Shown one piece after another: positions 207 to 11,631 of a stretch of 11,631 nucleotides of DNA; positions within the stretch are counted from its first letter, which is position 1, and the number at the start of each line of letters is the position of its first letter. The DNA lies in assembly GCA_023136205.1 (NCBI GenBank), contig JAGLRQ010000053.1:1-11631 (forward strand), read 5' to 3'. Source of the DNA: Candidatus Auribacterota bacterium (GTDB lineage Bacteria; Auribacterota; UBA6266). The position numbers and the translations under genes are program-made. The notes below the pieces were generated by a model. It saw only the letters and a program-made list of their open reading frames with translations. It ran no database searches and had not been told where the DNA came from.

Positions 207-1562
207 ATGAGCAAGCTGATTGTAAGTGTTTCAGGGGTAAGAGGAATAATCGGGGATTCATTAACGCCCGAGGTTGCTTTTCATTTTGGCGCTGCGTTTG
301 GGAGCCTGAACAAGGGAGGTAAAATTGTTCTGGGCAGGGATTCAAGGGTAAGCGGCCCCATGTTAAGTTCAGCTGTTGTTGCGGGGCTTGTTTCTACCGG
401 CTGTAAGGTAGTGGATATAGGCATAACATCAACACCGACGGTTCAAATAATGACCAAAGAGTTAAATGCTGACGGAGGGATTGAAATAACCGCCAGCCAT
501 AATCCGGTTATGTGGAACGGACTCAAATTTATGTCGGCTGATGGGCTTTTTGTAAGCGAAAGAACTGCAGAAAAGATTAAACAGGCTGCCTTGAATAAAG
601 AGTATTCTTTTATGTCCTGGGATAAGCTTGGAAGTATCAGCCGAGATTCATCGGCCGTTAAAACCCATATTCAGAAAGTTCTTTCGCTCCCTTACCTTGA
701 TGTGGATGCTGTGAGAAAAAGGAGGTTTAAAGTAGTTGTTGATACAGTAAATGGAGCCGGGGGCGGCATAATTCCTGAACTTCTTAAGCGGCTCGGGTGT
801 GAAGTAACGGTTTTAAACGAGGAGATGAACGGGCATTTTGCGCATGAGCCTGAGCCTCTTCCTAAAAACCTAAAACAGCTTTCCGATGAAATTGTGAAAA
901 GAGGGGTGGATATAGGTTTTGCAGTAGACCCTGACGTTGACAGATGTGCCATTGTAGATGAAAAAGGGACTCCGATTGGGGAAGAATATACCCTTGTAAT
1001 AGCAGCAAAGCTGGTTCTTTCAAAGAAAAAAGGAAAGGTAACCGTAAATGTTTCAACATCCATGGCAATTGATGATGTTGCCCGGGAGTATGGCTGTCCT
1101 GTGGAAAGAACAAGGGTGGGAGAAATTAATGTGGCACTAAAGATGAAAGATAACAAATCAGTTGTGGGCGGAGAAGGTAATGGCGGGGTGATGATTCCGG
1201 ATATTCATATAGGAAGGGATGCTCCGGTAGCCTGTGCTCTTGCCCTGCAGTATTTACTTGAATCAGGGAAAACACTTTCTGAGATAAAAGAAACTCTTCC
1301 AAAGTATGTGATATTTAAAGGGAAGGTAGATCTTGAAGATAAAGAACCAAAACTTATTCTCGAAGGGTTAAAAAAGCTTATGGCAAAGGAAAAGGTTGAT
1401 GAAACAGACGGCCTTAAAATTATAAGGGATAAATCATGGGTTCATATCAGGGGGTCTAATACTGAGCCTATAGTAAGAATTTATGCAGAGGCGGAAAATC
1501 TTAAAAAAGCCAAAAGGCTGCATGATGAATTTAGAGAAAAAGTTTTGAGGGTTACCAGATAA
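207..1562 (+). CDS. glmM: alpha-D-phosphohexomutase, phosphoglucosamine mutase type (GlmM/PMM-PGM family)
   Basis: 451-aa ORF carrying all four family signatures in order: phosphoserine loop TASHNP, metal loop FAVDPDVDR, sugar loop GGEGNGG, phosphate loop RGSNTEP. The N-terminus SVSGVRG resembles the archaeal/PMM-like subgroup rather than E. coli GlmM (GTDGIRG). The GlmM assignment rests on context: a GlmU-like gene lies 50 nt downstream and glmS is adjacent. SD ggaaggg precedes the ATG. Confidence 0.7.
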   Translation: MSKLIVSVSGVRGIIGDSLTPEVAFHFGAAFGSLNKGGKIVLGRDSRVSGPMLSSAVVAGLVSTGCKVVDIGITSTPTVQIMTKELNADGGIEITASHNPVMWNGLKFMSADGLFVSERTAEKIKQAALNKEYSFMSWDKLGSISRDSSAVKTHIQKVLSLPYLDVDAVRKRRFKVVVDTVNGAGGGIIPELLKRLGCEVTVLNEEMNGHFAHEPEPLPKNLKQLSDEIVKRGVDIGFAVDPDVDRCAIVDEKGTPIGEEYTLVIAAKLVLSKKKGKVTVNVSTSMAIDDVAREYGCPVERTRVGEINVALKMKDNKSVVGGEGNGGVMIPDIHIGRDAPVACALALQYLLESGKTLSEIKETLPKYVIFKGKVDLEDKEPKLILEGLKKLMAKEKVDETDGLKIIRDKSWVHIRGSNTEPIVRIYAEAENLKKAKRLHDEFREKVLRVTR

Positions 1563-1612
1563 AAAATAGGGTTAAAATAGTTATGTGTTACAGGCCTAAT
1601 TAGGAGTTTGAT

Positions 1613-2869
1613 GTGAAAATGATATGTATCTTTGAAGATGGGGGATATGCGGATTTATTACCATTGGTTTATATGCGCCCTGTATATGAGCTTCGCTGCG
1701 GAATAGATCTTCTTAGAGATAAAATAATAAGAAAATACCCTGCCTCGAAAGTAAACCTGTTTTGCCGTGATTACCTTTCTGCAACATTAAAGGAGCGGAC
1801 AACAGACGCTATAAACGAGATAGTTAATGGAAACAAAGGCACTATTTTCATAAACGGGCGTATACTTTTAAACAGGCAAATACCGGTTGAGGGAAAGGAA
1901 GAGGTAGGTATTAAAGGCAAAACGCTTGTATATGCGAGATTGAATAAAGATCACTCGAAATTAATGACCCCTGAGATGTTTCTTGAAGGAAAGGCCCTGG
2001 CAAAGCTTAAGGGTAAAGTTCCATTTGTAAAGGTTGAAGACATTACGGTTTTTAAATACTCGTGGGAGATAATCCATGAGAACGGAAAACAGATATGTAA
2101 AGACTTTGATGACCTGGCAGAAGGCGGAAAAATAAAGGGCAAGCTCTACGATGGTGTTCATATACTTGATAAAAAGAATTTATTTATAGATGAAGGTTCT
2201 ATTGTTAAGCCTGGAGTTGTGTTGGATGCGAGTGAGGGCTCTATATATATAGGCAAAGGGGTAAAGGTATTTCCTAATGCGGTGATAGAAGGTCCCGCGT
2301 ATATAGGGGATAATAGCACGGTAAAAATAGGGGCAAAGATATATAGAGGAACGAGTGTGGGAGAGGTTTGCAAGGTAGGAGGAGAGGTTGAGGAGAGCAT
2401 ATTTCATTCTTATTCGAACAAACAGCATGAAGGATTTCTTGGACATGCATATATCGGCCAGTGGTGCAACATTGCAGCGGACACAAATGACAGCGATTTG
2501 AAAAATAATTACAGTACTGTCAGGGTCTATGTTAATGGTAAATATGTTGACACAGGGGAAGTGTTTGTGGGGCTGACAATGGGAGATCATTCCAAAACCG
2601 GGATTAACTCGATGTTTAATACCGGTACGGTTATTGGTTTGAATGTTAATATTTTTGGAGCTCAGCTTCCTCCAAAATTCGTTCCTTCATTCTGCTGGGG
2701 GGCTAGCGGTGTATTTGTTGTTTATCAGCCCGATAAAGCAATAAAGGTTGCCGAGAGAGTTATGGCAAGAAGAAAAATCAAATTAACAAAAGCTCAAAAA
2801 GATCTTTTTATGTTTCTTTATAAAATGACCGAAAGTGAGCGAGACTTGAACCGGATTATTCAACTGTAA
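1613..2869 (+). CDS. GlmU-like sugar-phosphate nucleotidyl/acetyl-transferase with a left-handed beta-helix ('alternative bacterial GlmU'-type)
   Basis: 418-aa ORF. The C-terminal half is rich in hexapeptide [LIV]-G-x4 repeats (IYIGKGVKVFPNAVIEGPAYIGDNSTVKIGAKIYRGTSVGEVCKVGGEV...). The N-terminal ~190 aa resemble a nucleotidyltransferase fold but lack the canonical GxGTR(M/L) loop (IFEDGGYADLLPL instead). GTG start at 1613 lies 6 nt after AGGAG (1602-1606); ATG at 1619 is an alternative. The gene sits between the mutase and glmS. Confidence 0.6.
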   Translation: MKMICIFEDGGYADLLPLVYMRPVYELRCGIDLLRDKIIRKYPASKVNLFCRDYLSATLKERTTDAINEIVNGNKGTIFINGRILLNRQIPVEGKEEVGIKGKTLVYARLNKDHSKLMTPEMFLEGKALAKLKGKVPFVKVEDITVFKYSWEIIHENGKQICKDFDDLAEGGKIKGKLYDGVHILDKKNLFIDEGSIVKPGVVLDASEGSIYIGKGVKVFPNAVIEGPAYIGDNSTVKIGAKIYRGTSVGEVCKVGGEVEESIFHSYSNKQHEGFLGHAYIGQWCNIAADTNDSDLKNNYSTVRVYVNGKYVDTGEVFVGLTMGDHSKTGINSMFNTGTVIGLNVNIFGAQLPPKFVPSFCWGASGVFVVYQPDKAIKVAERVMARRKIKLTKAQKDLFMFLYKMTESERDLNRIIQL

Positions 2870-4682
2870 CACTTTTTGCCAGGTTCCTCGGCTGATCGAT
2901 ATTACATCCTCTCTTTACCGCTATGAAATAAGCGAGCAGCTGAAGAGGTATTACCGTTAAAAAAGGGTTTAAAACATCAATTGTTTTCGGTATATATATT
3001 GTATGATCGGCTAATTTTTTAATCTTTTTATCGCCTTTATTTGCTACGGCGATAACTTTTCCGTTTCGTGCTTTTATTTCTTCAATATTAGAAAGTATCT
3101 TGTCATAAACATTATCGCTTGTCGCAATAACAACAATGGGCATGTCTTTATCTATAAGAGCAATAGGCCCGTGCTTCATTTCTGCCGCCGGGTATCCTTC
3201 AGCGTGGATGTAAGATATTTCTTTAAGTTTCAATGCTCCTTCTAAGGCTGTTGGGAAATTATATCCCCTTCCCAGATAGAGAAAATTGTTTTTGTTAGAG
3301 TAGAGGTTTGCAATTTTTTTAAAGCTATTTTCTTCTTTTAAAATAGCTTTAATTTTGGATGGTATGGTTTTTAACTCTTTTAAAATAGATTTAGCCCTCT
3401 TTTTTGAGGTATTGCGCATACGGCCGAGGTGAAGCGCAAGTAAAAGCAAAACCGTTACCTGGGAAGTGAATGCCTTGGTTGACGCTACGCCGATTTCAGG
3501 CCCCGCATGAAGGTATATACCCCCATGTGATTCCCTGGAGATAGATGATCCAACTGCATTACAAATACCCATAATTGTTGCATTTTTTGTTTTTGCTTCA
3601 TGGATAGCGGCCAGAGTATCTGCGGTTTCTCCGGATTGGCTGATTGCAATTACAAGTGTTTGTTTATTTAATATGGGGTTGCGGTATCTAAATTCAGAGG
3701 CATATTCGACTTCAACGGGTATTCTTGCTATGTCTTCTATCATGTATTCGCCGATAAGTCCCGCGTGCCATGAGGTACCGCATGCGGTAATAACAATTTT
3801 TTCTATATCCTTCAATTTGTCTTCAAAAACAAGGAGTCCGCCGAGTTTGGATGTTGAATGTTTCTCATCGATTCTACCTCTCATGGAGTTAGTTATTGAT
3901 TCAGGCTGTTCATGTATTTCTTTGAGCATAAAATGTTCAAAGCCGCCTTTTTCAATCATATCTATATTCCATGAGACCTCTTCGATTTTTTTTGTTACCG
4001 ATTTATTATGGATTGTTTTTATATCAAAAGAATTTCTTCTCATGACGACCATTTCATCGTTTTCTAGATGAATTATTTTTTTTGTGTGCCTTAATGTCGC
4101 GGCGATGTCTGATGCCACAAACATTTCGTTTTTGCCGACGGCAACTATAAGGGGGCTTCCTTTTTTTGCGGCAACAATTTCATTGGGGTTTTTACAGCAT
4201 ATTACAGCAATGCCATAGGTTCCTTCTATGAGCTTTAACGCTGATCTGACCGCGTCTGAAAGATTACCTTTGTAATATTGTGATATAAGGTGGGCAAGCA
4301 CTTCGGTGTCTGTATCGCTCAAGAACCTAACGCCTTTTTTAAAAAGCTTTTTTCTAAGGTAATCATAATTTTCAATTATGCCGTTGTGCGCTACGGCTAT
4401 TTCCCGGGATTGGTCAAAGTGAGGGTGTGTGTTTTTGAGGAGCGGGGCTCCGTGTGTTGCCCACCTGGTATGTGCAATTCCAATATGCCCGGGTAAACTC
4501 TTTTTTTTGAGTTTTTTTTCGAGCTTTGATATATTTCCTACAGATTTAGTACATGATATGTGATTGTCATTAATGGTAGCTATGCCTGAAGAATCGTAAC
4601 CCCTGTACTCAAGGCGCTTTAGTCCGCTAAGTAATATTTCCTTAGCGTTTCGCTTTCCGATATATCCGATTATTCCGCACAT
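2856..4682 (-). CDS. glmS: glutamine--fructose-6-phosphate aminotransferase (isomerizing)
   Basis: 608-aa ORF starting MCGIIGY, the Ntn Cys nucleophile. It has a class-II glutaminase domain, two SIS domains (GTSWHAG..., SQSGETADT) and the characteristic C-terminus ...LAKSVTVE. Confidence 0.95.
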   Translation of the reverse strand: MCGIIGYIGKRNAKEILLSGLKRLEYRGYDSSGIATINDNHISCTKSVGNISKLEKKLKKKSLPGHIGIAHTRWATHGAPLLKNTHPHFDQSREIAVAHNGIIENYDYLRKKLFKKGVRFLSDTDTEVLAHLISQYYKGNLSDAVRSALKLIEGTYGIAVICCKNPNEIVAAKKGSPLIVAVGKNEMFVASDIAATLRHTKKIIHLENDEMVVMRRNSFDIKTIHNKSVTKKIEEVSWNIDMIEKGGFEHFMLKEIHEQPESITNSMRGRIDEKHSTSKLGGLLVFEDKLKDIEKIVITACGTSWHAGLIGEYMIEDIARIPVEVEYASEFRYRNPILNKQTLVIAISQSGETADTLAAIHEAKTKNATIMGICNAVGSSISRESHGGIYLHAGPEIGVASTKAFTSQVTVLLLLALHLGRMRNTSKKRAKSILKELKTIPSKIKAILKEENSFKKIANLYSNKNNFLYLGRGYNFPTALEGALKLKEISYIHAEGYPAAEMKHGPIALIDKDMPIVVIATSDNVYDKILSNIEEIKARNGKVIAVANKGDKKIKKLADHTIYIPKTIDVLNPFLTVIPLQLLAYFIAVKRGCNIDQPRNLAKSVTVE

Positions 4683-4757: not shown

Positions 4758-6260
4758 TTAGCATATTTTGATATTATACTCCTTAACTTTCCTATCCAGC
4801 CTGTTTCTGGAAATTCCGAGAAGTTTGGCTGCTTTACTTTTGTTGCCGGTTGTATATTGAACAGCTTTTTCTATATGGTTTTTTTCAGCAGATTTTAGCA
4901 TCCAATCAGTTGTTATCGGCGTGCGTTTCGTCCTTATTTCAGCAGGAAGATCTTCTGCTTTGAGAATTTTACCTGTTCCCAAGACCATGGCTCTCTCAAC
5001 CGTATTCTTAAGCTCTCTGATATTTCCATGCCAGTTGTATGAAAGAAGAATATCCATTGCCCTGGGTTCAATTGACGTTATTACTTTTCCCATAGATTTT
5101 GTCTGTTCTTCAATAAGGTGTGTAAGCAGGTCGGGGATATCTTCCTTATGTTCTCTTAATGGAGGCATGTAAAGTTCTATTACCTTTACCCTGTAATACA
5201 GGTCTTCCCTGAAGCGTCCTTCTTCAATTGCTTTCTCGAGGTTTTCATTGGTAGCCGCAATTATGCGGGCCTCGGATTTTATGGTTTCCGTTCCGCCTAC
5301 CCTTTCAAATTCTTTTTCCTGCAAAACCCTTAAAAGTTTTACCTGGATATGGGGTGATAGCGTTCCGATTTCATCCAGGAAAATAGTTCCTTTTGCGCAA
5401 AGCTCGAATCGTCCTATTTTTCTGGCAACAGCTCCTGTAAAAGCGCCTTTTTCATGTCCAAAGAGTTCGCTTTCAAGCAATGTTTCCGGTAGAGCTGAGC
5501 AATTGATACATATGAAGGGATGATGTTTCCTCGGGCTTTTTATGTGGATCATCCTTGCTGCGAGTTCTTTGCCGGTACCGCTTTCACCTCGAATCAGTAT
5601 GGTAGAATCAGTCCCCGCGACGGTATTTATTAGTTCATGAACGGCCTTCATTTTATTGCCGGATCCTATCATTTTTGTTGATTGGGGTATTTGGGTTTTC
5701 AGGTTTTTGACTTCTATCCCCATTTCGTTATGAAGTCGGGCATTTTCAATGGCGATAGCTGCCTGGTTTGTAAATGCGACCAGCAAAGAAAGGTCTTTAT
5801 CATCGAAATTGCCGGATTTGTTATTGATAACTTCGATTACTCCAATTATTTTCCCCCTTATTTTTATGGGGGCGCAGATAATCGAACGTGTCGGGTAATT
5901 TAGTTTCTTACTTATATCTCCGAACCATCGTTTATCTTCCTGGACATTATTGGAGATGGTGGGTTTCCCTTCATTTATTACCCATCCTGCAATCCCCTGT
6001 CCCGCCTTTATCTTAAAATTCTTTATCTCGTTTGCCTTTTTACCGGTAACTGTTTTAAATGCAAGGTAATTAGCGTTTTTTTCAATCAATATTATAGAAC
6101 TTGCTTCAGAATTTAAAACATCACTTGCCGTTTTCAGTACTCGTTCCAGGACTTCTGTGATGTCCAGAGTCGAATTGATGATCTGATTTATTTCAAAAAG
6201 TTTTAGAAGGTTTGTTTTTCCGATATCTTTAAAAAGTTCAGTAGTTTCTTTAGTTTCCAT
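4758..6260 (-). CDS. sigma54-dependent transcriptional activator (bEBP) with GAF sensor, AAA+ domain and Fis-type HTH
   Basis: The N-terminal ~170 aa are GAF-like (ILIEKNANYLAF..., GIAGWVINEGKP..., IGVIEVINN). The central AAA+ domain has Walker A GESGTGKE, the sigma54-contact loop GAFTGA, Walker B IFLDEIG and the R-finger region. The C-terminus carries the HTH GNKSKAAKLLGISRNRLDRKVKEY. There is no receiver domain. The track starts at a TTG (6266). I prefer the ATG at 6260, which lies 8 nt after an AAGGA SD on the - strand. Confidence 0.9.
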   Translation of the reverse strand: METKETTELFKDIGKTNLLKLFEINQIINSTLDITEVLERVLKTASDVLNSEASSIILIEKNANYLAFKTVTGKKANEIKNFKIKAGQGIAGWVINEGKPTISNNVQEDKRWFGDISKKLNYPTRSIICAPIKIRGKIIGVIEVINNKSGNFDDKDLSLLVAFTNQAAIAIENARLHNEMGIEVKNLKTQIPQSTKMIGSGNKMKAVHELINTVAGTDSTILIRGESGTGKELAARMIHIKSPRKHHPFICINCSALPETLLESELFGHEKGAFTGAVARKIGRFELCAKGTIFLDEIGTLSPHIQVKLLRVLQEKEFERVGGTETIKSEARIIAATNENLEKAIEEGRFREDLYYRVKVIELYMPPLREHKEDIPDLLTHLIEEQTKSMGKVITSIEPRAMDILLSYNWHGNIRELKNTVERAMVLGTGKILKAEDLPAEIRTKRTPITTDWMLKSAEKNHIEKAVQYTTGNKSKAAKLLGISRNRLDRKVKEYNIKIC

Positions 6261-6298
6261 TGTCAATTTCCTTTTTCAATATGTTTCATTATATGACA

Positions 6299-6497: not shown

Positions 6498-6513
6498 TGG
6501 CATGGCTTTTGCT
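6498..6513 (+). promoter_or_regulatory. sigma54 (-24/-12) promoter
   Basis: TGGCATGGCTTTTGCT matches the consensus TGGCAC-N5-TTGCW with a single C-to-T deviation and exact GG-N10-GC spacing. The predicted start is ~20 nt before the ATG at 6544, with SD AAGGAGG (6531-6537) in between. The sigma54 activator gene is divergent from it. Confidence 0.7.
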
Positions 6514-6543: not shown

Positions 6544-6942
6544 ATGAAAAAGCTAATTTTAATGTTGGTTGCAGTATCAATGGCAACAGGAGTTATTACA
6601 ACTGCTTCGGCAGGAGAGAAAGAATGGGCTACAGCAGGCAAAATACTTGCAGGAGTTACAGCGTATCAGTTTTTGAGCGGGAACTTACTCCCACAGCAGA
6701 GAGCATATTATGGTTACTCATATTATGCGCCAAGACGTTTAAGACATTATTATCAAACACCAAGGCATTATTCACCAAGAAGGTACCGTTCCTCAAACAC
6801 GTATTATGTTCCTTATTCACCAAGAAGGCACCGTTCTTCAAACACGTATTATGTTCCTTCATACACAACGTATACAACTACATATGCTGCTAACTATTCT
6901 GAGCCTGTTGTAATTGTAGAAGAAAACAATCGTTGGTGGTAA
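6544..6942 (+). CDS. secreted Tyr/Arg/Pro-rich tandem-repeat protein, unknown family
   Basis: Strong SD. Sec signal MKKLILMLVAVSMATGVITTASA|GE. By my count the ~109-aa mature part contains 19 Tyr and 12 Arg. It carries reiterated [AST]PRR motifs and two near-identical 15-aa units, SPRRYRSSNTYYVPY and SPRRHRSSNTYYVPS. The tail is TTYTTTYAANYSEPVVIVEENNRWW. I recognise no family. Confidence 0.7.
   Translation: MKKLILMLVAVSMATGVITTASAGEKEWATAGKILAGVTAYQFLSGNLLPQQRAYYGYSYYAPRRLRHYYQTPRHYSPRRYRSSNTYYVPYSPRRHRSSNTYYVPSYTTYTTTYAANYSEPVVIVEENNRWW
6771..6860 (+). repeat. 2 x 45-bp in-frame tandem repeat
   Basis: 6771-6815 and 6816-6860 differ at 3 of 45 positions. They encode the 15-aa units above. 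More degenerate PRR-containing units lie just upstream (about 6730-6770). Confidence 0.9.
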
Positions 6943-6946
6943 TTTT

Positions 6947-7444
6947 ATGAAAAAGCTTATAATTACATTAGTCCTGGGTGCCGCTTTTTGCGGCACCTGC
7001 CTCTTCCCTGAAGATGTTCTGGGAGACGAAAAATTATTCTCATCGAATTGCGTTATAGTTGAGGGAGGGAAGATAAGAGTTGTTGGTACGGGGAAGCCTC
7101 CGGTATCTTCGTATTATGGGAAATCTCAAAAGAGGCTTATGGCTCGCCGGGCGGCGATCATTGACGCTTATAGGAATCTTGCCCGAACCCTTGCTGGTTT
7201 TTCAGGTAGGGCTATAAAGTCTGGCAACATAAAATCAAATGGATATATAGTTGACGCGAGATGCGTAGAAACAAGATATTACAAAGACGGAACGGTTCAG
7301 ATTATTCTGGAAATGCCTGGAATTAGTAAAAAAAGAGTTTGCAAAAGAGAGGGCATAAAGGTTTATAATGATGAATTGGTTTCAATCGATAGAAAAACTT
7401 TTGCAGTAAGTGAACAGGAATGGTTAGGAATGAAACCCAAGTAG
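6947..7444 (+). CDS. exported FlgP/LPP20-like protein, single module
   Basis: The start lies 4 nt after the previous stop. Signal-like N-terminus MKKLIITLVLGAAFCGTC. The lead-in strand IRVVGTGKPP is followed by KRLMARRAAIIDAYRNLARTLAG. This matches the helix signature (RLMA-RAA-lDAYR-LAE) I recall from Vibrio FlgP and the LPP20 lipoprotein family. Confidence 0.6.
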   Translation: MKKLIITLVLGAAFCGTCLFPEDVLGDEKLFSSNCVIVEGGKIRVVGTGKPPVSSYYGKSQKRLMARRAAIIDAYRNLARTLAGFSGRAIKSGNIKSNGYIVDARCVETRYYKDGTVQIILEMPGISKKRVCKREGIKVYNDELVSIDRKTFAVSEQEWLGMKPK

Positions 7445-7531
7445 GGTCATGGGTCAAGGGTGAGGAGAAATTTGTATTCCCCAGAACCTAAAACCCACAA
7501 CCAATGACCCATGGTAAGGAAGGAGGATGAA

Positions 7532-8836
7532 ATGTTAAGGAAATTAGGAGTACTGGTTTTGATGGCGAGTTTGAGTATGCCTCTGGTTTGTATGCCGGTT
7601 TATGCTACAGCCAAAGGTCAGCAGAAGCTTATGGCGGAAAGAGCGGCGAAGGTTGATGCCTATAGAAATCTTGCTGAAAGGGTGAAAGGGCTTAGAATAG
7701 ACGCTAACACCTATGTCAGGGATTTTGTCGCGGAAAGCGACCAGATTAATACATCATTTGATCATTTTATAAAAGGCGCTGCCATTGTTCCGGGAAGCGA
7801 TAGATGGGATGGTGAAGTTTACACTTTAAGAGCCAGGCTTACGTTAGAACAGGTAGTTAAATTTATTAAAACATACTACAAGAAAACAAGGTTTCTTTTT
7901 TGGACGCATACAAAAATTCAGCAGATAGAGACTTACAATAAGGAGTATAAGGTGATAGAGGTTGAAGGTTCGGGGACGATCAGAACCGCTGATCCTTCTG
8001 AGAATTTACAGACTAAACCTGCTAGGATTACCGATGGGATACCCGGCTGGGAAGGAGTTACAGCTCGTGGCAGGTTGATGGCTGAAAGAGCTGCAAAGGT
8101 TGATGCGTATAGAAATCTTGCTGAAAAGGTTAAAGGAGTAAGAATCACTTCAAGTACTTATGTCAGAGACTTTGTGGCGGAGAATGATCAGATAAATACT
8201 GCACTGGACACGTATATAAAAGGCATTCGTTTGTCAGGCCCGTACAGATATTTGCCTGACGGAATAGCTGAATGTGATGTTGAAGTAACTATAGTGGATG
8301 TAATAAAAGAAGTTCATGAAATATGGAAACGGTTTGAAAGAAGAGGCTATAGATTTAGAAAAGTAAGGTGGAAGAAAGTAAGGTGGGAAGAGGTTGTAAC
8401 TCAGCAGAATATTCGCGTGATAAGAGCGACTGGTTCCGGTGTTCCTCCGGAGAAATATATAGAAAAGGGGCCTGTGTCTCAGGCCCCTTCCCAGGCTGTT
8501 TCTGCGCCTTCCTGGGCTTCTCAGGCTGTGTCAGCCAAAGGTTATGGGGTTCCGAGGGAAGGTGAGGCCGGAACCGTTGCAAAGCTTAATGCGGGTAGGG
8601 CGGCTGAGGTAGACGCAAGAAGAAATCTTGCTGAGATTATTTATGGAGTAAAAATTGACGCGAATACAACTGTCAGGGATTTTGCTGTTCAAAATGACCA
8701 GGTGAATGCGAAAGTCAAAACTTTTATGGCAGGTGCTAAAGTAAGCGATCCTCTTTTTCTTGAGGATGGAAGCGTTGAGGTAACAGTTTCGATTTTATTG
8801 CGGGGTTTATGGGATTCCATAAAAAAAAGCAGGTAA
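7532..8836 (+). CDS. exported protein with three tandem FlgP/LPP20-like modules
   Basis: I prefer the ATG at 7532, 5 nt after AGGAGG (7521-7526), over the track start at 7511. Signal MLRKLGVLVLMASLSMPLVCMPVYA|TA. The three modules begin LMAERAAKVDAYRNLAERVKGLRIDANTYVRDFVAESDQINT, LMAERAAKVDAYRNLAEKVKGVRITSSTYVRDFVAENDQINT and LNAGRAAEVDARRNLAEIIYGVKIDANTTVRDFAVQNDQVNA. A basic RKVRWKKVRW repeat and an SQA-rich linker lie between modules 2 and 3. Confidence 0.65.
   Translation: MLRKLGVLVLMASLSMPLVCMPVYATAKGQQKLMAERAAKVDAYRNLAERVKGLRIDANTYVRDFVAESDQINTSFDHFIKGAAIVPGSDRWDGEVYTLRARLTLEQVVKFIKTYYKKTRFLFWTHTKIQQIETYNKEYKVIEVEGSGTIRTADPSENLQTKPARITDGIPGWEGVTARGRLMAERAAKVDAYRNLAEKVKGVRITSSTYVRDFVAENDQINTALDTYIKGIRLSGPYRYLPDGIAECDVEVTIVDVIKEVHEIWKRFERRGYRFRKVRWKKVRWEEVVTQQNIRVIRATGSGVPPEKYIEKGPVSQAPSQAVSAPSWASQAVSAKGYGVPREGEAGTVAKLNAGRAAEVDARRNLAEIIYGVKIDANTTVRDFAVQNDQVNAKVKTFMAGAKVSDPLFLEDGSVEVTVSILLRGLWDSIKKSR
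7631..8200 (+). repeat. Intragenic duplication (modules 1 and 2 of the triple-module gene)
   Basis: Hand alignment of 7631-7753 with 8078-8200 gives 94/123 identical nucleotides and 36/42 identical residues. A third, more diverged copy starts near 8585. A separate 15-bp tandem (aaagtaaggtgg at 8360-8371 and 8375-8386) encodes KVRW-KKVRW. Confidence 0.8.
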
Positions 8837-8892: not shown

Positions 8893-9018
8893 ATGAAAAA
8901 GGCTGTAATTTTAATAGTTTTGTTTTCTGTCATTTCAATTGTAATTGTGGGATGTACCGAAAAGTATGTTGTTACCGAAAGGACCGTGGTTGAAACAAGA
9001 GAAGTTGTTGTAGAATAG
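8893..9018 (+). CDS. 41-aa lipoprotein, below the ORF-track length cut-off
   Basis: My own translation: MKKAVILIVLFSVISIVIVGCTEKYVVTERTVVETREVVVE*. SD GAGGG (8883-8887) lies 5 nt before the ATG. It has a textbook n/h-region and lipobox IVG|C. The stop is 11 nt before the next gene's ATG, whose SD GGGGAGG overlaps that stop. The 21-aa mature peptide is an alternating Val/Thr/Glu/Arg beta-strand-like sequence. Confidence 0.6.
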   Translation: MKKAVILIVLFSVISIVIVGCTEKYVVTERTVVETREVVVE

Positions 9019-9029
9019 GGGAGGTTGAA

Positions 9030-10163
9030 ATGAAACGGTTAATATTATTATTTTTCGTTTGTATATTTGTAACAACTTGCGTTTTTGCTCAGATGGAAAC
9101 TACTATAGTGGCGAAGGGCATGGCTGCCGTAAGGGGGGTCGGCCCGGATGCTGTTCTCAGCGCGAGAGATGAGGCGATTAACCGTGCTTTAAGGAATGCT
9201 GTGGAACAAGCGGTGGGCAGCCTTATTGATTCTGAAACTATGGTCCAGAATTTTCAGCTGCTGGATGACCAGGTTTATTCAGAGGTAAAAGGATATGTAA
9301 AGAGTTATGAGATTGTAGATGATAATAATGGTGAAGGGGGGATTTATCAAACAAGGGTTAAAGCTGTTGTTTTACTGGGTACCCTAAGAAAGAACCTTAA
9401 AGCTTTTAATATAGTCAAGGAAAAGCTTAACAAACCCAGAATCATGATTGTTTTTTCTGAGACCGTAGATGGCCTTGAGCAACCCGGACAAACGGTTCAA
9501 ACCGGAATGGAAAAGAGTTTTTTGAACAACGATTTTAAACTGATAGATAAAGCTCAAATGGAAGCCGTGAAATTACGGGATGCTGCTGTTTACTATGAAA
9601 ATCCTACAGAAGCAGTTGCTCTTGGCAGGAGGTTCGGAGCTGAGGTTATTGTAGTTGGACAGGTCTCTTCCGATTTAGTTGATTCCAGCTGGCCGTATGG
9701 CGTTTGTGTCTTTGCCTATGAAGCGCAGGCCACCGCAAAAGCTATTGATGTTGATTCTGCCCAGGTTATAGTTTCAGACGGTGCCAGTGCCCAGGCAAGG
9801 GCCGGAGGAAGAGTCCCTTCGGCGCGCAAAGCAGCCAAGGAAGCAGGCGTGAAGCTGGCAGGGAAAATGATGGACCAAATAGTTGAAAACTGGAGAACCA
9901 AAGTTTACAATACAATGGATATTCAGATTGTCGGCTTTAATGCTGACGCCGATAACCGCCTTGCTTTTGAGAAGGCACTTGAGCAGGTCAGGGGCGTAAG
10001 AAGTGTAAACGAAAGAAGTTTTTCAAGGGATGTAGTGATTATAGATGTAACAATTGACGGGGCATTGTATAAAGGTTTTGAAGAGATAATAAATACCCTT
10101 CCTGATGTTGATGTAAAAATTAAGGGAAAAACTCAAAACAGGATAGATTTAGATTTTTTATAA
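9030..10163 (+). CDS. exported FlgT-like multidomain protein: LPP20/FlgT_N-like head, TolB-N/CsgG-like alpha/beta domain and a C-terminal domain
   Basis: Signal MKRLILLFFVCIFVTTCVFA|QM. The N-domain reads IVAKGMAAVRGVGPDAVLSARDEAINRALRNAVEQAVGSLIDSETMVQNF...YQTRVKAVV, which fits the pattern x-G-x-A...AR-xA-xxAL-xxA-xQ-xG I associate with FlgT_N/LPP20. The middle region (PRIMIVFSE...FKLIDKAQ...GAEVIVVGQV) resembles the CsgG/LpoB/TolB-N type fold. The family call is by eye only. Confidence 0.45.
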   Translation: MKRLILLFFVCIFVTTCVFAQMETTIVAKGMAAVRGVGPDAVLSARDEAINRALRNAVEQAVGSLIDSETMVQNFQLLDDQVYSEVKGYVKSYEIVDDNNGEGGIYQTRVKAVVLLGTLRKNLKAFNIVKEKLNKPRIMIVFSETVDGLEQPGQTVQTGMEKSFLNNDFKLIDKAQMEAVKLRDAAVYYENPTEAVALGRRFGAEVIVVGQVSSDLVDSSWPYGVCVFAYEAQATAKAIDVDSAQVIVSDGASAQARAGGRVPSARKAAKEAGVKLAGKMMDQIVENWRTKVYNTMDIQIVGFNADADNRLAFEKALEQVRGVRSVNERSFSRDVVIIDVTIDGALYKGFEEIINTLPDVDVKIKGKTQNRIDLDFL

Positions 10164-10242
10164 GATTGTAACACTTTTACATTGAGTGGTGTATTATCTG
10201 TATATAATTTGTGGTGTGCTAAGAACTTACAGGGGTATTAAG

Positions 10243-11298
10243 ATGCTTTTTATGAAAAGATGGTTTTTTATAGTGGGCATGTCTTTTTTGATTATTGCTG
10301 TTGTCGGCCTTGATGGTACTGCTGCCGCGAGGAGAAGAACATCTTACGATAGAAAAGAAAGGCCGGCCCGAAAAAAGAAGAAAAAGAAAGTTGTCCAGCA
10401 GATGGTGCTTCCTCCTATTGTTGGGCCGAGAAAGACTATAGCGGTTGCCGATTTCGAGAACAAGGCAGGTGCTCAAGCGCGGTGGAATCTCGGAAACGGT
10501 ATGGCAGAAATGCTTACCACTTCCCTGGTAAACACGAACAGATTTATTGTTGTTGAACGCCAGAATATCCGGGGTATTATTCAGGAACAGGATTTTTCTG
10601 TAAGCGGCAGAACAATTAATGTCGGGGCCCCTGAGATAGGGCGCCTTTTAAATGCTCAGATTCTTGTAAGCGGAGCCATAACAGAATTTTCACAGCGTTT
10701 TTTTGATTCTGGAAGCCTTTTTCAATATAAAGGTGTTTCTCTGGGGGTGAAATCAGCCACTGCTCATGTAGCCCTTAATATAAGGATGTATGATACTACT
10801 GCCGGTGAAGTAATTGCCTCTAAGCGTGTTGAAGGCAAGGGGAATGTTTCCGGCCTTAGTATCGGCTATTCTGAAAGTGATTGGGGGGTTGATTTTGATA
10901 ACTTTAAAGCATCTCCACTTGGTAAGGTAACTCAACAAGCGATTGACGAAGCGGTCTATTATATCTGTTTGGAGATGCAGAAGGTTTCATGGCAGGGTAC
11001 TGTTGTTACTATCAAAGGCGGTAAAATATATCTTAATTGCGGCGCGAATTCCAATGTTAAAGCCGGTGATGAATTTGAGGTTTACAGAAAGGGCGAGGAG
11101 CTTATTGATCCTGATTCAGGGCTGTCTCTTGGTTTTGAGACAAAAAAAATAGGATTGGTTAAGGTTTTCGAAGTTGAAGATAAGTTTTCGCTTGCAGATT
11201 CTGTTTCGGGCGGAAAATTTGAGAGGGGAGATATAATTAAATTTATTCCACCACCACCGGTTCCATTGCCCGAGGAGGGTACAGTAATATCTCAATAG
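10243..11298 (+). CDS. CsgG-family outer-membrane channel-like protein with a polybasic N-terminal linker and an extra C-terminal domain
   Basis: It aligns by eye to E. coli CsgG block by block: KTIAVADFENKAG...GNGMAEMLTTSLVNTNRFIVVERQNIRGIIQEQ matches KIFVSVYNIQDETGQ...ATAMLVTALKDSRWFIPLERQGLQNLLNER, ILVSGAITEF matches IMVEGSIIGY, and HVALNIRMYDTTAGEVIAS matches QIAVNLRVVNVSTGEILSS. I prefer the ATG at 10243, 7 nt after AGGGG, to the GTG at 10186. There is no Cys after the hydrophobic segment, so it is not a canonical lipoprotein. A RRR...RKKKKKK tract spans 10324-10389. The C-terminal ~100 aa (GKIYLNCGANSNVKAGDEFEVYRKGEELIDPDSG...GDIIKF) end in PPPPVPLPEE. Confidence 0.75.
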   Translation: MLFMKRWFFIVGMSFLIIAVVGLDGTAAARRRTSYDRKERPARKKKKKKVVQQMVLPPIVGPRKTIAVADFENKAGAQARWNLGNGMAEMLTTSLVNTNRFIVVERQNIRGIIQEQDFSVSGRTINVGAPEIGRLLNAQILVSGAITEFSQRFFDSGSLFQYKGVSLGVKSATAHVALNIRMYDTTAGEVIASKRVEGKGNVSGLSIGYSESDWGVDFDNFKASPLGKVTQQAIDEAVYYICLEMQKVSWQGTVVTIKGGKIYLNCGANSNVKAGDEFEVYRKGEELIDPDSGLSLGFETKKIGLVKVFEVEDKFSLADSVSGGKFERGDIIKFIPPPPVPLPEEGTVISQ

Positions 11299-11401: not shown

Positions 11402-11631
11402 ATGAAAGGGTTTTTATCATGTATATTTGTTTGGGTTTTTGTTCTTTTGGTTTCTTATGCCGGTGCCGGCATAAAAAAAACCATAGCAGTTTCTGATTTC
11501 GAAAACAAAGCGGGGTTCAGTTCCGAATGGAATCTTGGCAGCGGCATGGCAGAAATGGTTACCACTTCCCTTACCAATTCGGGTAGTTTTATTGTCGTGG
11601 AAAGGCAGAATATTCAGGGTATCCTTCAGGA
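11402..11631 (+). CDS. second CsgG-family paralogue, 5' partial; continues past the right edge
   Basis: Absent from the ORF track because no stop is reached. SD GGAGG lies 6 nt upstream. My translation: MKGFLSCIFVWVFVLLVSYAGAGIKKTIAVSDFENKAGFSSEWNLGSGMAEMVTTSLTNSGSFIVVERQNIQGILQ. It is collinear with residues ~65-130 of the preceding gene but lacks the polybasic linker. Confidence 0.75.
   Translation, partial: MKGFLSCIFVWVFVLLVSYAGAGIKKTIAVSDFENKAGFSSEWNLGSGMAEMVTTSLTNSGSFIVVERQNIQGILQ

Follow-up and report, generated by a model that had tools for sequence, protein, structure and literature searches.

FlgP, FlgT and their relatives are add-ons of the flagellar motor that serve for more torque or for passage through the outer membrane, relatives of CsgG and FlgT form rings, and Lpp20 of Helicobacter pylori is a single-module lipoprotein. 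In Campylobacter jejuni, FlgP builds concentric rings, the innermost consisting of 17 trimeric repeats, with contacts from one FlgP to the two that follow; Lpp20 is shown as sharing the FlgP fold only, the ring-forming β-hairpin being unique to FlgP, and the prediction for FlgQ is a single chain similar to a repeat of two FlgP protomers (PMC12222027). According to its authors, a second study indicates that FlgQ seems not to be a structural part of the disk; it also reports that the lipobox cysteine of C. jejuni FlgP is dispensable, that PflE, a 57-aa lipoprotein, is required for the outer-membrane localisation of FlgP, and that among the surveyed Helicobacter species a lipobox is predicted for FlgP only in those without PflE (bioRxiv 10.1101/2025.04.02.646747). 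Here we analysed an 11,631-nt stretch of DNA (contig JAGLRQ010000053.1; hereafter the window) from an uncultured bacterium of the Planctomycetota-Verrucomicrobiota-Chlamydiota (PVC) group, Candidatus Aureabacteria, and in it a gene encoding a 434-residue protein made of three fused FlgP-like modules. An earlier reading of the same DNA (the original prediction) had described characterised FlgP and Lpp20 proteins as single-module, ring-forming lipoproteins. This is partly true, and fails for the predicted two-FlgP repeat of FlgQ, for the dispensable lipobox of FlgP and for Lpp20, which shares the fold only. A tandem FlgP-like chain already has a predicted precedent in FlgQ.

The LPP20/FlgP family (Pfam PF02169, InterPro IPR024952) has a curated cut-off of 25.9 bits. 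The window protein matched it in three stretches with 67.2 bits (E 1.7e-18), and three copies of a module headed by the helix LMAERAAKVDAYRNLAE or a variant of it are indeed present in the reading frame, as predicted. Profile comparison aligned the protein with four FlgP sequences of the Protein Data Bank (PDB) at E-values from 6e-15 to 6e-8; among solved structures the best matches are C. jejuni FlgP (9hmf_C, E 6.3e-15) and Vibrio FlgP (8z5n, E 3.6e-9), both on module 3 in alignments that are collinear save two single-residue gaps. In the AlphaFold model each module contains a long helix and strands, as in the SHS2-like fold, in which a helix lies on a three-stranded sheet. By profile and by fold, the three-module protein belongs to the LPP20/FlgP fold family. 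It is not filed here as a FlgP orthologue, because the lipobox and the flagellar context were not found and the segment corresponding to the FlgP hairpin gives a mixed picture, aligning ungapped but being predicted as helical. The missing lipobox does not exclude membership of the fold family, as some FlgP proteins do not need one. A search of NCBIfam gave nothing useful for this protein or for its 165-aa one-module paralogue upstream.

The open reading frame (ORF) spans 7511-8836 in the ORF list. The true start is almost certainly the ATG at 7532, the in-frame ATG at 7511 being less likely because of the position of the ribosome-binding site (RBS), an AGGAGG at 7521-7526 lying 5 nt ahead of ATG 7532, and because of database gene calls: a protein named 'LPP20 family lipoprotein' from a Candidatus Aureabacteria metagenome-assembled genome (MAG; P0001) is 100% identical to the 434-aa product and has the same gene call.

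Comparison of the modules with one another revealed local alignment scores of 214 (modules 1 and 2), 148 (1 and 3) and 163 (2 and 3), against a mean of about 25 and a standard deviation of about 5 for shuffled sequences, which corresponds to z = 26-39. Counted from LMAERAA onward, copies 1 and 2 are identical at 36 of 42 residues, exactly as first counted; at the nucleotide level, where 94/123 had been reported, the count is 92/123 or 94/126 depending on the register, so that its size was about right. The repeat unit itself was correctly recognised, and only its length, put at ~60 residues, was too short for a folded unit of about 90-125. The spacers between the modules had been called unique, and here the original prediction does not wholly hold: each of the two contains a conserved helix followed by a strand, YKVIEVEGSG after module 1 and IRVIRATGSG after module 2, with the consensus KVIxATGxG(V)P. 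In addition, a P-x-W...V-x-A-x-G motif leads into both module 2 and module 3; its G172 and W173, in module 2, do not vary in 60 homologues. Both the SQA-rich linker (aa 316-335) and the KVRW-KKVRW micro-repeat (aa 277-285) were found; Tandem Repeats Finder reports the latter at the DNA level as a 15-nt unit repeated 2.1 times. The micro-repeat occurs only in this lineage and its nearest relatives (KRVRWEKVRW in P0010), the matching region elsewhere being unrepeated.

A full-length AlphaFold model built with the 60 homologues showed a mean predicted local distance difference test (pLDDT) of 83.8 and a predicted template-modelling score (pTM) of 0.48, with confidence below 50 in the signal peptide (aa 15-25) and the linkers (aa 154-161 and 314-322). 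The model describes three well-folded units on flexible tethers. Each predicted unit comprises, in order, a helix of ~25 residues, two short helices, a β-hairpin and a C-terminal helix, the two short helices being the segment that matches the insert of FlgP. This segment, which in FlgP is the ring-building β-hairpin, has the same length here as in C. jejuni FlgP and aligns with it ungapped. Module 1, modelled alone with its trailing strand, gave a pLDDT of 86.7 and a pTM of 0.79, the strand itself reaching about 91; it is thus predicted to fold as one compact domain, with the strand packed on its own module. In FlgP, a strand of the A-x-G-x-G-x-x-P type (SFTAVGEGIAP) lies ahead of the helix. 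If each module has one full strand, modules 1 and 2 therefore take theirs from behind and module 3 takes its own from in front. Complete two-module relatives follow the former pattern, a strand ending every module and the first module beginning directly after the signal peptide. Modules 1 and 2 would accordingly be permuted in strand order with respect to FlgP, in a manner resembling circular permutation, whereas module 3 would keep the FlgP order. The protein is nearly collinear with C. jejuni FlgP (Cj1026c, basal disk, PDB 9hmf) over strand, helix, insert and hairpin. FlgP, however, is a single module of about 170 aa and a part of the flagellar motor, whereas here three modules are fused, two would have the first strand moved behind, and the insert is predicted to be helical.

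A Foldseek search of the PDB with the full model placed C. jejuni FlgP first (9hmf_A, TM-score 0.54 on the target, root-mean-square deviation (rmsd) 9.3 Å on the C-alpha trace), followed by H. pylori Lpp20 (5ok8_A, TM-score 0.53, rmsd 4.0 Å) and Tip-alpha chains, all with weak E-values (0.02-0.09). LPP20-like domains were detected in all three segments and the full model matches FlgP and Lpp20, in agreement with the original prediction for the protein as a whole. Lpp20 (HP1456, 5OK8) and Tip-alpha share the Pfam family, and 5ok8_A is the closest superposition; unlike Lpp20, with its single module, the window protein has three modules and no lipobox. These data bear on a first alternative, in which three Lpp20-like domains form a flexible 'beads-on-a-string' periplasmic adaptor that makes no rings, each module binding a partner, the cell wall or the membrane and the repeats adding only avidity or reach. 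The low pTM, the two linkers of low pLDDT, an insert predicted as helices rather than a β-hairpin, and the smaller rmsd to Lpp20 than to FlgP at equal TM-score are all consistent with it, as are relatives with coiled-coil-like spacers (P0121, P0156 and P0166), which resemble extended tethers. We nevertheless regard it as possible and somewhat unlikely: the closest sequence relatives with solved structures are ring-forming FlgPs, the near-collinearity of the modules with FlgP extends through the insert, and the characterised relatives of the CsgG-like and FlgT-like proteins in the same cluster are ring formers.

A word-indexed search returned 880 relatives, of which the best 120 served for lengths and 60 were aligned. 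The best 120 measure 368-471 aa, nearly all 412-471, and most cover more than 90% of the query. All 60 aligned homologues retain the three modules and much of the sequence between them, at identities to the window protein down to 40%. For 178 of 180 modules, the nearest neighbour was the module at the same position of another protein. As the modules group by position across proteins, the three copies predate the radiation of the family; the triplication is ancient and conserved throughout the PVC superphylum. Copy 3 had been thought older; no dating is possible, all three copies predate the radiation, and copy 3 is merely the most FlgP-like. A recent duplication or an assembly artefact was rejected, the copies being too diverged and not adjacent, in agreement with the position-wise clustering, and Tandem Repeats Finder saw no module triplication in the DNA. 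Any effect of gene conversion on modules 1 and 2 is minor, their mean identity within a protein (0.53) barely exceeding that between proteins (0.49).

A scan of one representative genome per species, whose count is a lower bound, found a relative in at least 369 species-level genomes of Auribacterota, Omnitrophota, Verrucomicrobiota (including a Methylacidiphilum MAG) and Planctomycetota (Phycisphaerae, Planctomycetaceae and Brocadiia). A one-module profile searched against 1.84 billion representative proteins yielded 3517 matches at E ≤ 1e-3. The best 150 of these all have two to six modules: 96 representative clusters showed two matched stretches, 47 three, five four, one five and one six. 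The proposed survey of domain architectures therefore shows multi-module LPP20 proteins to be a large, varied and unstudied group in which the window protein is no rarity. Among the retrieved sequences are complete two-module proteins of about 320 aa with signal peptides and four-module ones of 500-585 aa. Some metagenomic relatives have two to six LPP20 modules set apart by long Gln/Lys/Glu-rich, coiled-coil-like spacers (P0121, of 1448 aa, P0156, P0157 and P0166), with a conserved PERFVPEWA motif before each later module. Literature searches found nothing on multi-module LPP20 proteins, on the PVC cluster or on its micro-lipoprotein; LPP20 combined with PVC phylum names returned only unrelated planctomycete papers, and LPP20, CsgG and FlgT only flagellar-motor papers.

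Both the LPP20 family name and the NCBI product name imply an N-terminal lipobox. The signal peptide of the three-module protein has no conserved cysteine, and a lipobox-like motif occurs in the first 40 aa of only 3 of the 60 homologues, so the protein, judged by its sequence, is secreted and not a lipoprotein. A 41-aa micro-lipoprotein is encoded directly downstream, with a mature peptide of 21 residues that has VVVE at its end. A strict filter for lipobox micro-ORFs, set to the 700 nt downstream of the three-module gene, found them in 32 of 74 loci, against 0.011 per equivalent stretch elsewhere in those loci. They range from Auribacterota to Planctomycetota (L004-L086), with two or three in some loci, and 28 of 40 end in [VIL][VIL][ED]; two-module relatives carry a similar sequence as their own C-terminal tail (...VIEVE, ...VIIID). 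This arrangement recalls PflE in C. jejuni, a micro-lipoprotein that may be compared with the present one in being paired with a FlgP-like protein lacking a working lipobox: C. jejuni FlgP can do without its lipobox and relies on PflE. Two differences are apparent. The pflE gene (Cj0978c) is not adjacent to flgP (Cj1026c), whereas here the 41-aa gene directly follows; and PflE tagged at its C-terminus was used for complementation of the mutant, whereas the micro-lipoproteins share a free C-terminus ending in VVE or IVE.

The genes of the plus strand run from 6544 to the end of the window, and the order of one-module paralogue, three-module protein, micro-lipoprotein, 377-aa FlgT_N-like protein and CsgG/FlgT_C-like proteins recurs across Auribacterota-type loci. 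The three-module gene is followed by the 377-aa gene in Auribacterota, in Omnitrophota and in many loci of Planctomycetota; it is preceded by the one-module gene in Auribacterota and in Verrucomicrobiota. The coordinates of all features are collected in the table.

Table. Features of the three-module gene and of its surroundings in the window (nt positions in the window, aa positions in the 434-aa protein).
Feature	Position (nt)	Strand	Evidence
Three-module FlgP/LPP20-family coding sequence, 434 aa	7532..8836, stop codon included	+	ORF list, RBS, Pfam, P0001 match
Signal peptide, type I, aa 1-27, MLRKLGVLVLMASLSMPLVCMPVYATA	7532..7612	+	Read from sequence; pLDDT about 50; without conserved lipobox
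Module 1, aa 28-151: long helix, two-helix insert, β-hairpin, C-terminal helices, trailing strand	7613..7984	+	AlphaFold secondary structure; conserved in 60 homologues
Linker 1, aa 152-167, variable length	7985..8032	+	pLDDT <50 at aa 154-161; gapped in 60-homologue alignment
Module 2, aa 168-306: leading IPGWEGVTARG, helix, insert, hairpin, C-terminal helices with KVRW-KKVRW, trailing strand	8033..8449	+	Model, alignment
Linker 2, aa 307-325, start of SQA-rich stretch	8450..8506	+	pLDDT <50 at aa 314-322; variable in alignment
Module 3, aa 326-434: leading strand PSWASQAVSAKGYGVP, then helix; no trailing strand; FlgP-like order	8507..8833	+	FlgP profile matches
Helix copies, aa 30-53, 179-202, 349-372	7619..7690, 8066..8137, 8576..8647		
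Trailing strand of module 1, aa 139-148	7946..7975		
Trailing strand of module 2, aa 294-303	8411..8440		
Leading motif of modules 2 and 3	8039..8071, 8507..8554		
KVRW-KKVRW micro-repeat	8360..8386		
15-nt tandem repeat, 2.1 copies	8360..8391		Tandem Repeats Finder
41-aa micro-lipoprotein, lipobox IVGC, mature peptide CTEKYVVTERTVVETREVVVE	8893..9018	+	ORF list; gene call in L001-L006
165-aa secreted one-module FlgP/LPP20-like paralogue, shortened insert	6947..7444	+	hhalign probability 99.1%, E 1.4e-18
377-aa secreted protein, N-terminal FlgT_N/FlgP-like module	9030..10163	+	FlgT_N, FlgP and module alignments
CsgG-like protein, FlgT_C-like C-terminal domain	10186..11298	+	Pfam CsgG E 6.2e-34, FlgT_C 1.4e-5, FlgT_M 3.7e-5
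Second CsgG-like gene, start only, runs off window	11402..11631	+	phmmer
132-aa secreted Tyr/Arg-rich protein, first cluster gene	6544..6942	+	ORF list; no family match
Sigma-54 promoter-like site TGGCATGGCTTTTGCT	6498..6513	+	About 30 nt before first cluster gene
Divergent GAF / sigma-54-interaction / HTH_8 activator	4758..6266	-	Pfam; same position in 16 related loci

Alignment of the 165-aa paralogue with the module profile confirmed the proposed one-module relative next to the three-module gene. Its insert is about 12 residues shorter than in the module profile, and it matches C. jejuni FlgP with E 1.3e-7; a Pfam scan gave no match for it, the relationship needing profile-profile comparison. 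In the 377-aa family, FlgT_N matches three of four members (best E 2.1e-6), with a weak LpoB match too; aa 27-113 of the 377-aa protein align with C. jejuni FlgP (E 0.012), and its N-terminal domain scores z = 7-10 against the three modules. The product of 10186-11298 belongs to the CsgG family (PF03783, 117.6 bits against a threshold of 20.8) and matches CsgG (about 7e-5) and the C-terminus of TsaP (1e-3) in the PDB. Its true start is probably an internal ATG (MLFMKRW...), preferred because the signal peptide fits better there, the GTG start probably lying too far upstream. The second CsgG-like gene, full-length in L001 and L003, encodes CsgG, FlgT_C and FlgT_M domains (CsgG 134.3 bits, E 4.9e-39). 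No lipobox is visible in the N-termini of the CsgG-like proteins. In the N-terminal region encoded at 10186-10420, a run of six lysines (ARKKKKKKVV) follows the hydrophobic segment, and no lipobox is present.

The cluster proteins together carry every domain type of FlgP and FlgT. As in the Vibrio FlgP/FlgT/FlgO H-ring (8z5n, 3W1E), FlgP-like modules stand beside FlgT_N-, FlgT_M/CsgG- and FlgT_C-like domains; unlike in Vibrio, the FlgT domain types are split over separate proteins and the context looks non-flagellar, and no FlgO match was seen. FlgQ of C. jejuni is likewise predicted to hold tandem FlgP-like modules in one chain, with the difference that it has two modules, not three, and is flagellar.

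No flagellar Pfam family was annotated within 10 kb in four loci from distant homologues (L001, L004, L005 and L006), and the cluster was found in the type MAGs of Ca. Tritonobacter lacicola (L023) and Ca. Theseobacter exili (L033). The Auribacterota MAGs from Ace Lake, these two included, are reported to encode no flagella, whereas Ca. Auribacter fodinae is reported to encode them (PMC9324843). The ring-forming FlgP subgroup is encoded with, or depends on, flagellar genes; neither the four loci nor the MAGs reported without flagella showed this, and the setting of the cluster looks non-flagellar. The three-module protein could still serve a flagellar motor after all, as part of the basal disk or H-ring in a lineage of Auribacterota that has flagella. 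The FlgP, FlgT_N, FlgT_M and FlgT_C similarities in the cluster would fit such a role, and Ca. Auribacter fodinae, reported to encode flagella, carries a homologue (P0114; PMC9324843). Upstream of the cluster lies the sigma-54-like site, the sole match in the window (0.01 expected), a motif also present upstream in 13 related loci, namely 12 with a detected divergent activator and L012, where none was detected. Sigma-54 control, which is common for flagellar genes, would agree with a motor function as well; known flagellar sigma-54 activators, however, carry a FleQ-type or receiver domain, whereas the input domain of the activator here is GAF. Together with the lack of annotated flagellar families around the four loci and the presence of the cluster in two MAGs reported without flagellar genes, this makes a motor accessory very unlikely.

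We give even chances to the reading that the cluster products build a non-flagellar, membrane-proximal, oligomeric periplasmic scaffold tethered by the micro-lipoprotein. The proteins would jointly form a structure akin to the Campylobacter FlgP basal disk and the Vibrio FlgP/FlgT H-ring, the three-module chain would supply three pre-linked subunits, a number for which the trimeric repeats of the inner C. jejuni FlgP ring offer a precedent, and the micro-lipoprotein may provide the lipid anchor missing from the large proteins, by analogy with PflE for FlgP in C. jejuni. Several observations weigh against this scaffold. With a pTM of 0.48 and linkers of low confidence, nothing fixes the three modules relative to each other, which, at the level of the model, speaks against the monomer being a rigid trimer. 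This weakens the fixed stoichiometry and the stacked, concentric or radius-bridging rings that the original prediction had raised as possibilities. The segment of the FlgP ring-forming hairpin is predicted as two helices in both models, more like Lpp20, and Foldseek with the isolated module 1 model found nothing significant in the PDB. The strand order was derived from AlphaFold confidence and strand counting, not from inspected coordinates. Single-sequence phmmer searches detected no CsgG-like genes beside the three-module gene in Verrucomicrobiota and many Planctomycetota loci. Finally, the two Ace Lake MAGs are 88-92% complete, so that their lack of flagella is good evidence for a non-flagellar setting though not final.

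A stronger form of the proposal, which we consider unlikely, is that the cluster builds a flagellum-independent ring or disk under the PVC outer membrane, with the fused triplet as a repeating unit comparable to the 17 trimeric repeats of Campylobacter FlgP. On this view, flagella would have recruited their basal disk and H-ring from an envelope structure that is older and stood alone, and that structure might match an unexplained surface structure of Planctomycetota, such as the crateriform pits. In either form, the locus represents a large, conserved and apparently non-flagellar branch of the FlgP/FlgT family in at least four PVC phyla, distinguished by fused modules, a probably altered strand order and a putative partner micro-lipoprotein. 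If its proteins assemble, this branch would be a candidate free-standing ancestor or cousin of the flagellar disks, a natural experiment on whether the number of subunits is fixed by covalent linkage, and a second, independent case, after PflE, of a small lipoprotein anchoring a FlgP without lipobox. If they do not, the window encodes a well-conserved multi-domain periplasmic protein only.

The CsgG-like genes suggest a further, rather improbable alternative to this scaffold, in which the LPP20-like proteins are periplasmic accessories of a CsgG-like outer-membrane channel that exports a fibre or surface protein; its cargo here would be the Tyr/Arg-rich repeat protein. In favour are the two CsgG matches (E 6.2e-34 and 4.9e-39), the secreted repeat protein that is the product of the first cluster gene (6544-6942), and the signal peptides carried by all cluster products. 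The putative cargo, however, is limited to the closest relatives, the CsgG-like proteins have FlgT_C/TsaP-like domains and no lipobox, and Planctomycetota loci without a detected CsgG-like gene still have the three-module and 377-aa genes as a pair. CsgG itself is a lipoprotein that makes a nonameric outer-membrane channel and is encoded in a curli operon; a Pfam scan found no csgA/B/E/F-like genes in the window. The 132-aa gene contains a 45-nt tandem repeat in two copies (6768-6859), encoding YSPRR[YH]RSSNTYYVP, and phmmer matched its product only in close relatives (L001-L003, L007-L010 and L033).

The divergent activator is likely the regulator of the cluster. Genes for the supply of UDP-N-acetylglucosamine flank it (207-4682), with a GlmM-like phosphoglucosamine mutase at 207-1562, an NTP_transf_4 plus hexapeptide protein at 1613-2869, and GlmS at 2856-4682 on the minus strand beside the activator; GlmS also lies beside the activator in the distant locus L005. 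Outside the window, in L001, a protein of ~441 aa with a FecR-like N-terminal part and a C-terminal LPP20 module (Pfam E 5.4e-6) is encoded at 15328-16653 on the minus strand, a few kb downstream of the cluster and in the opposite orientation. The same gene occupies the same position in L003, L005, L007, L013, L015, L023 and L033, and adjoins a DUF3307 gene and a CHASE2-guanylate cyclase gene.

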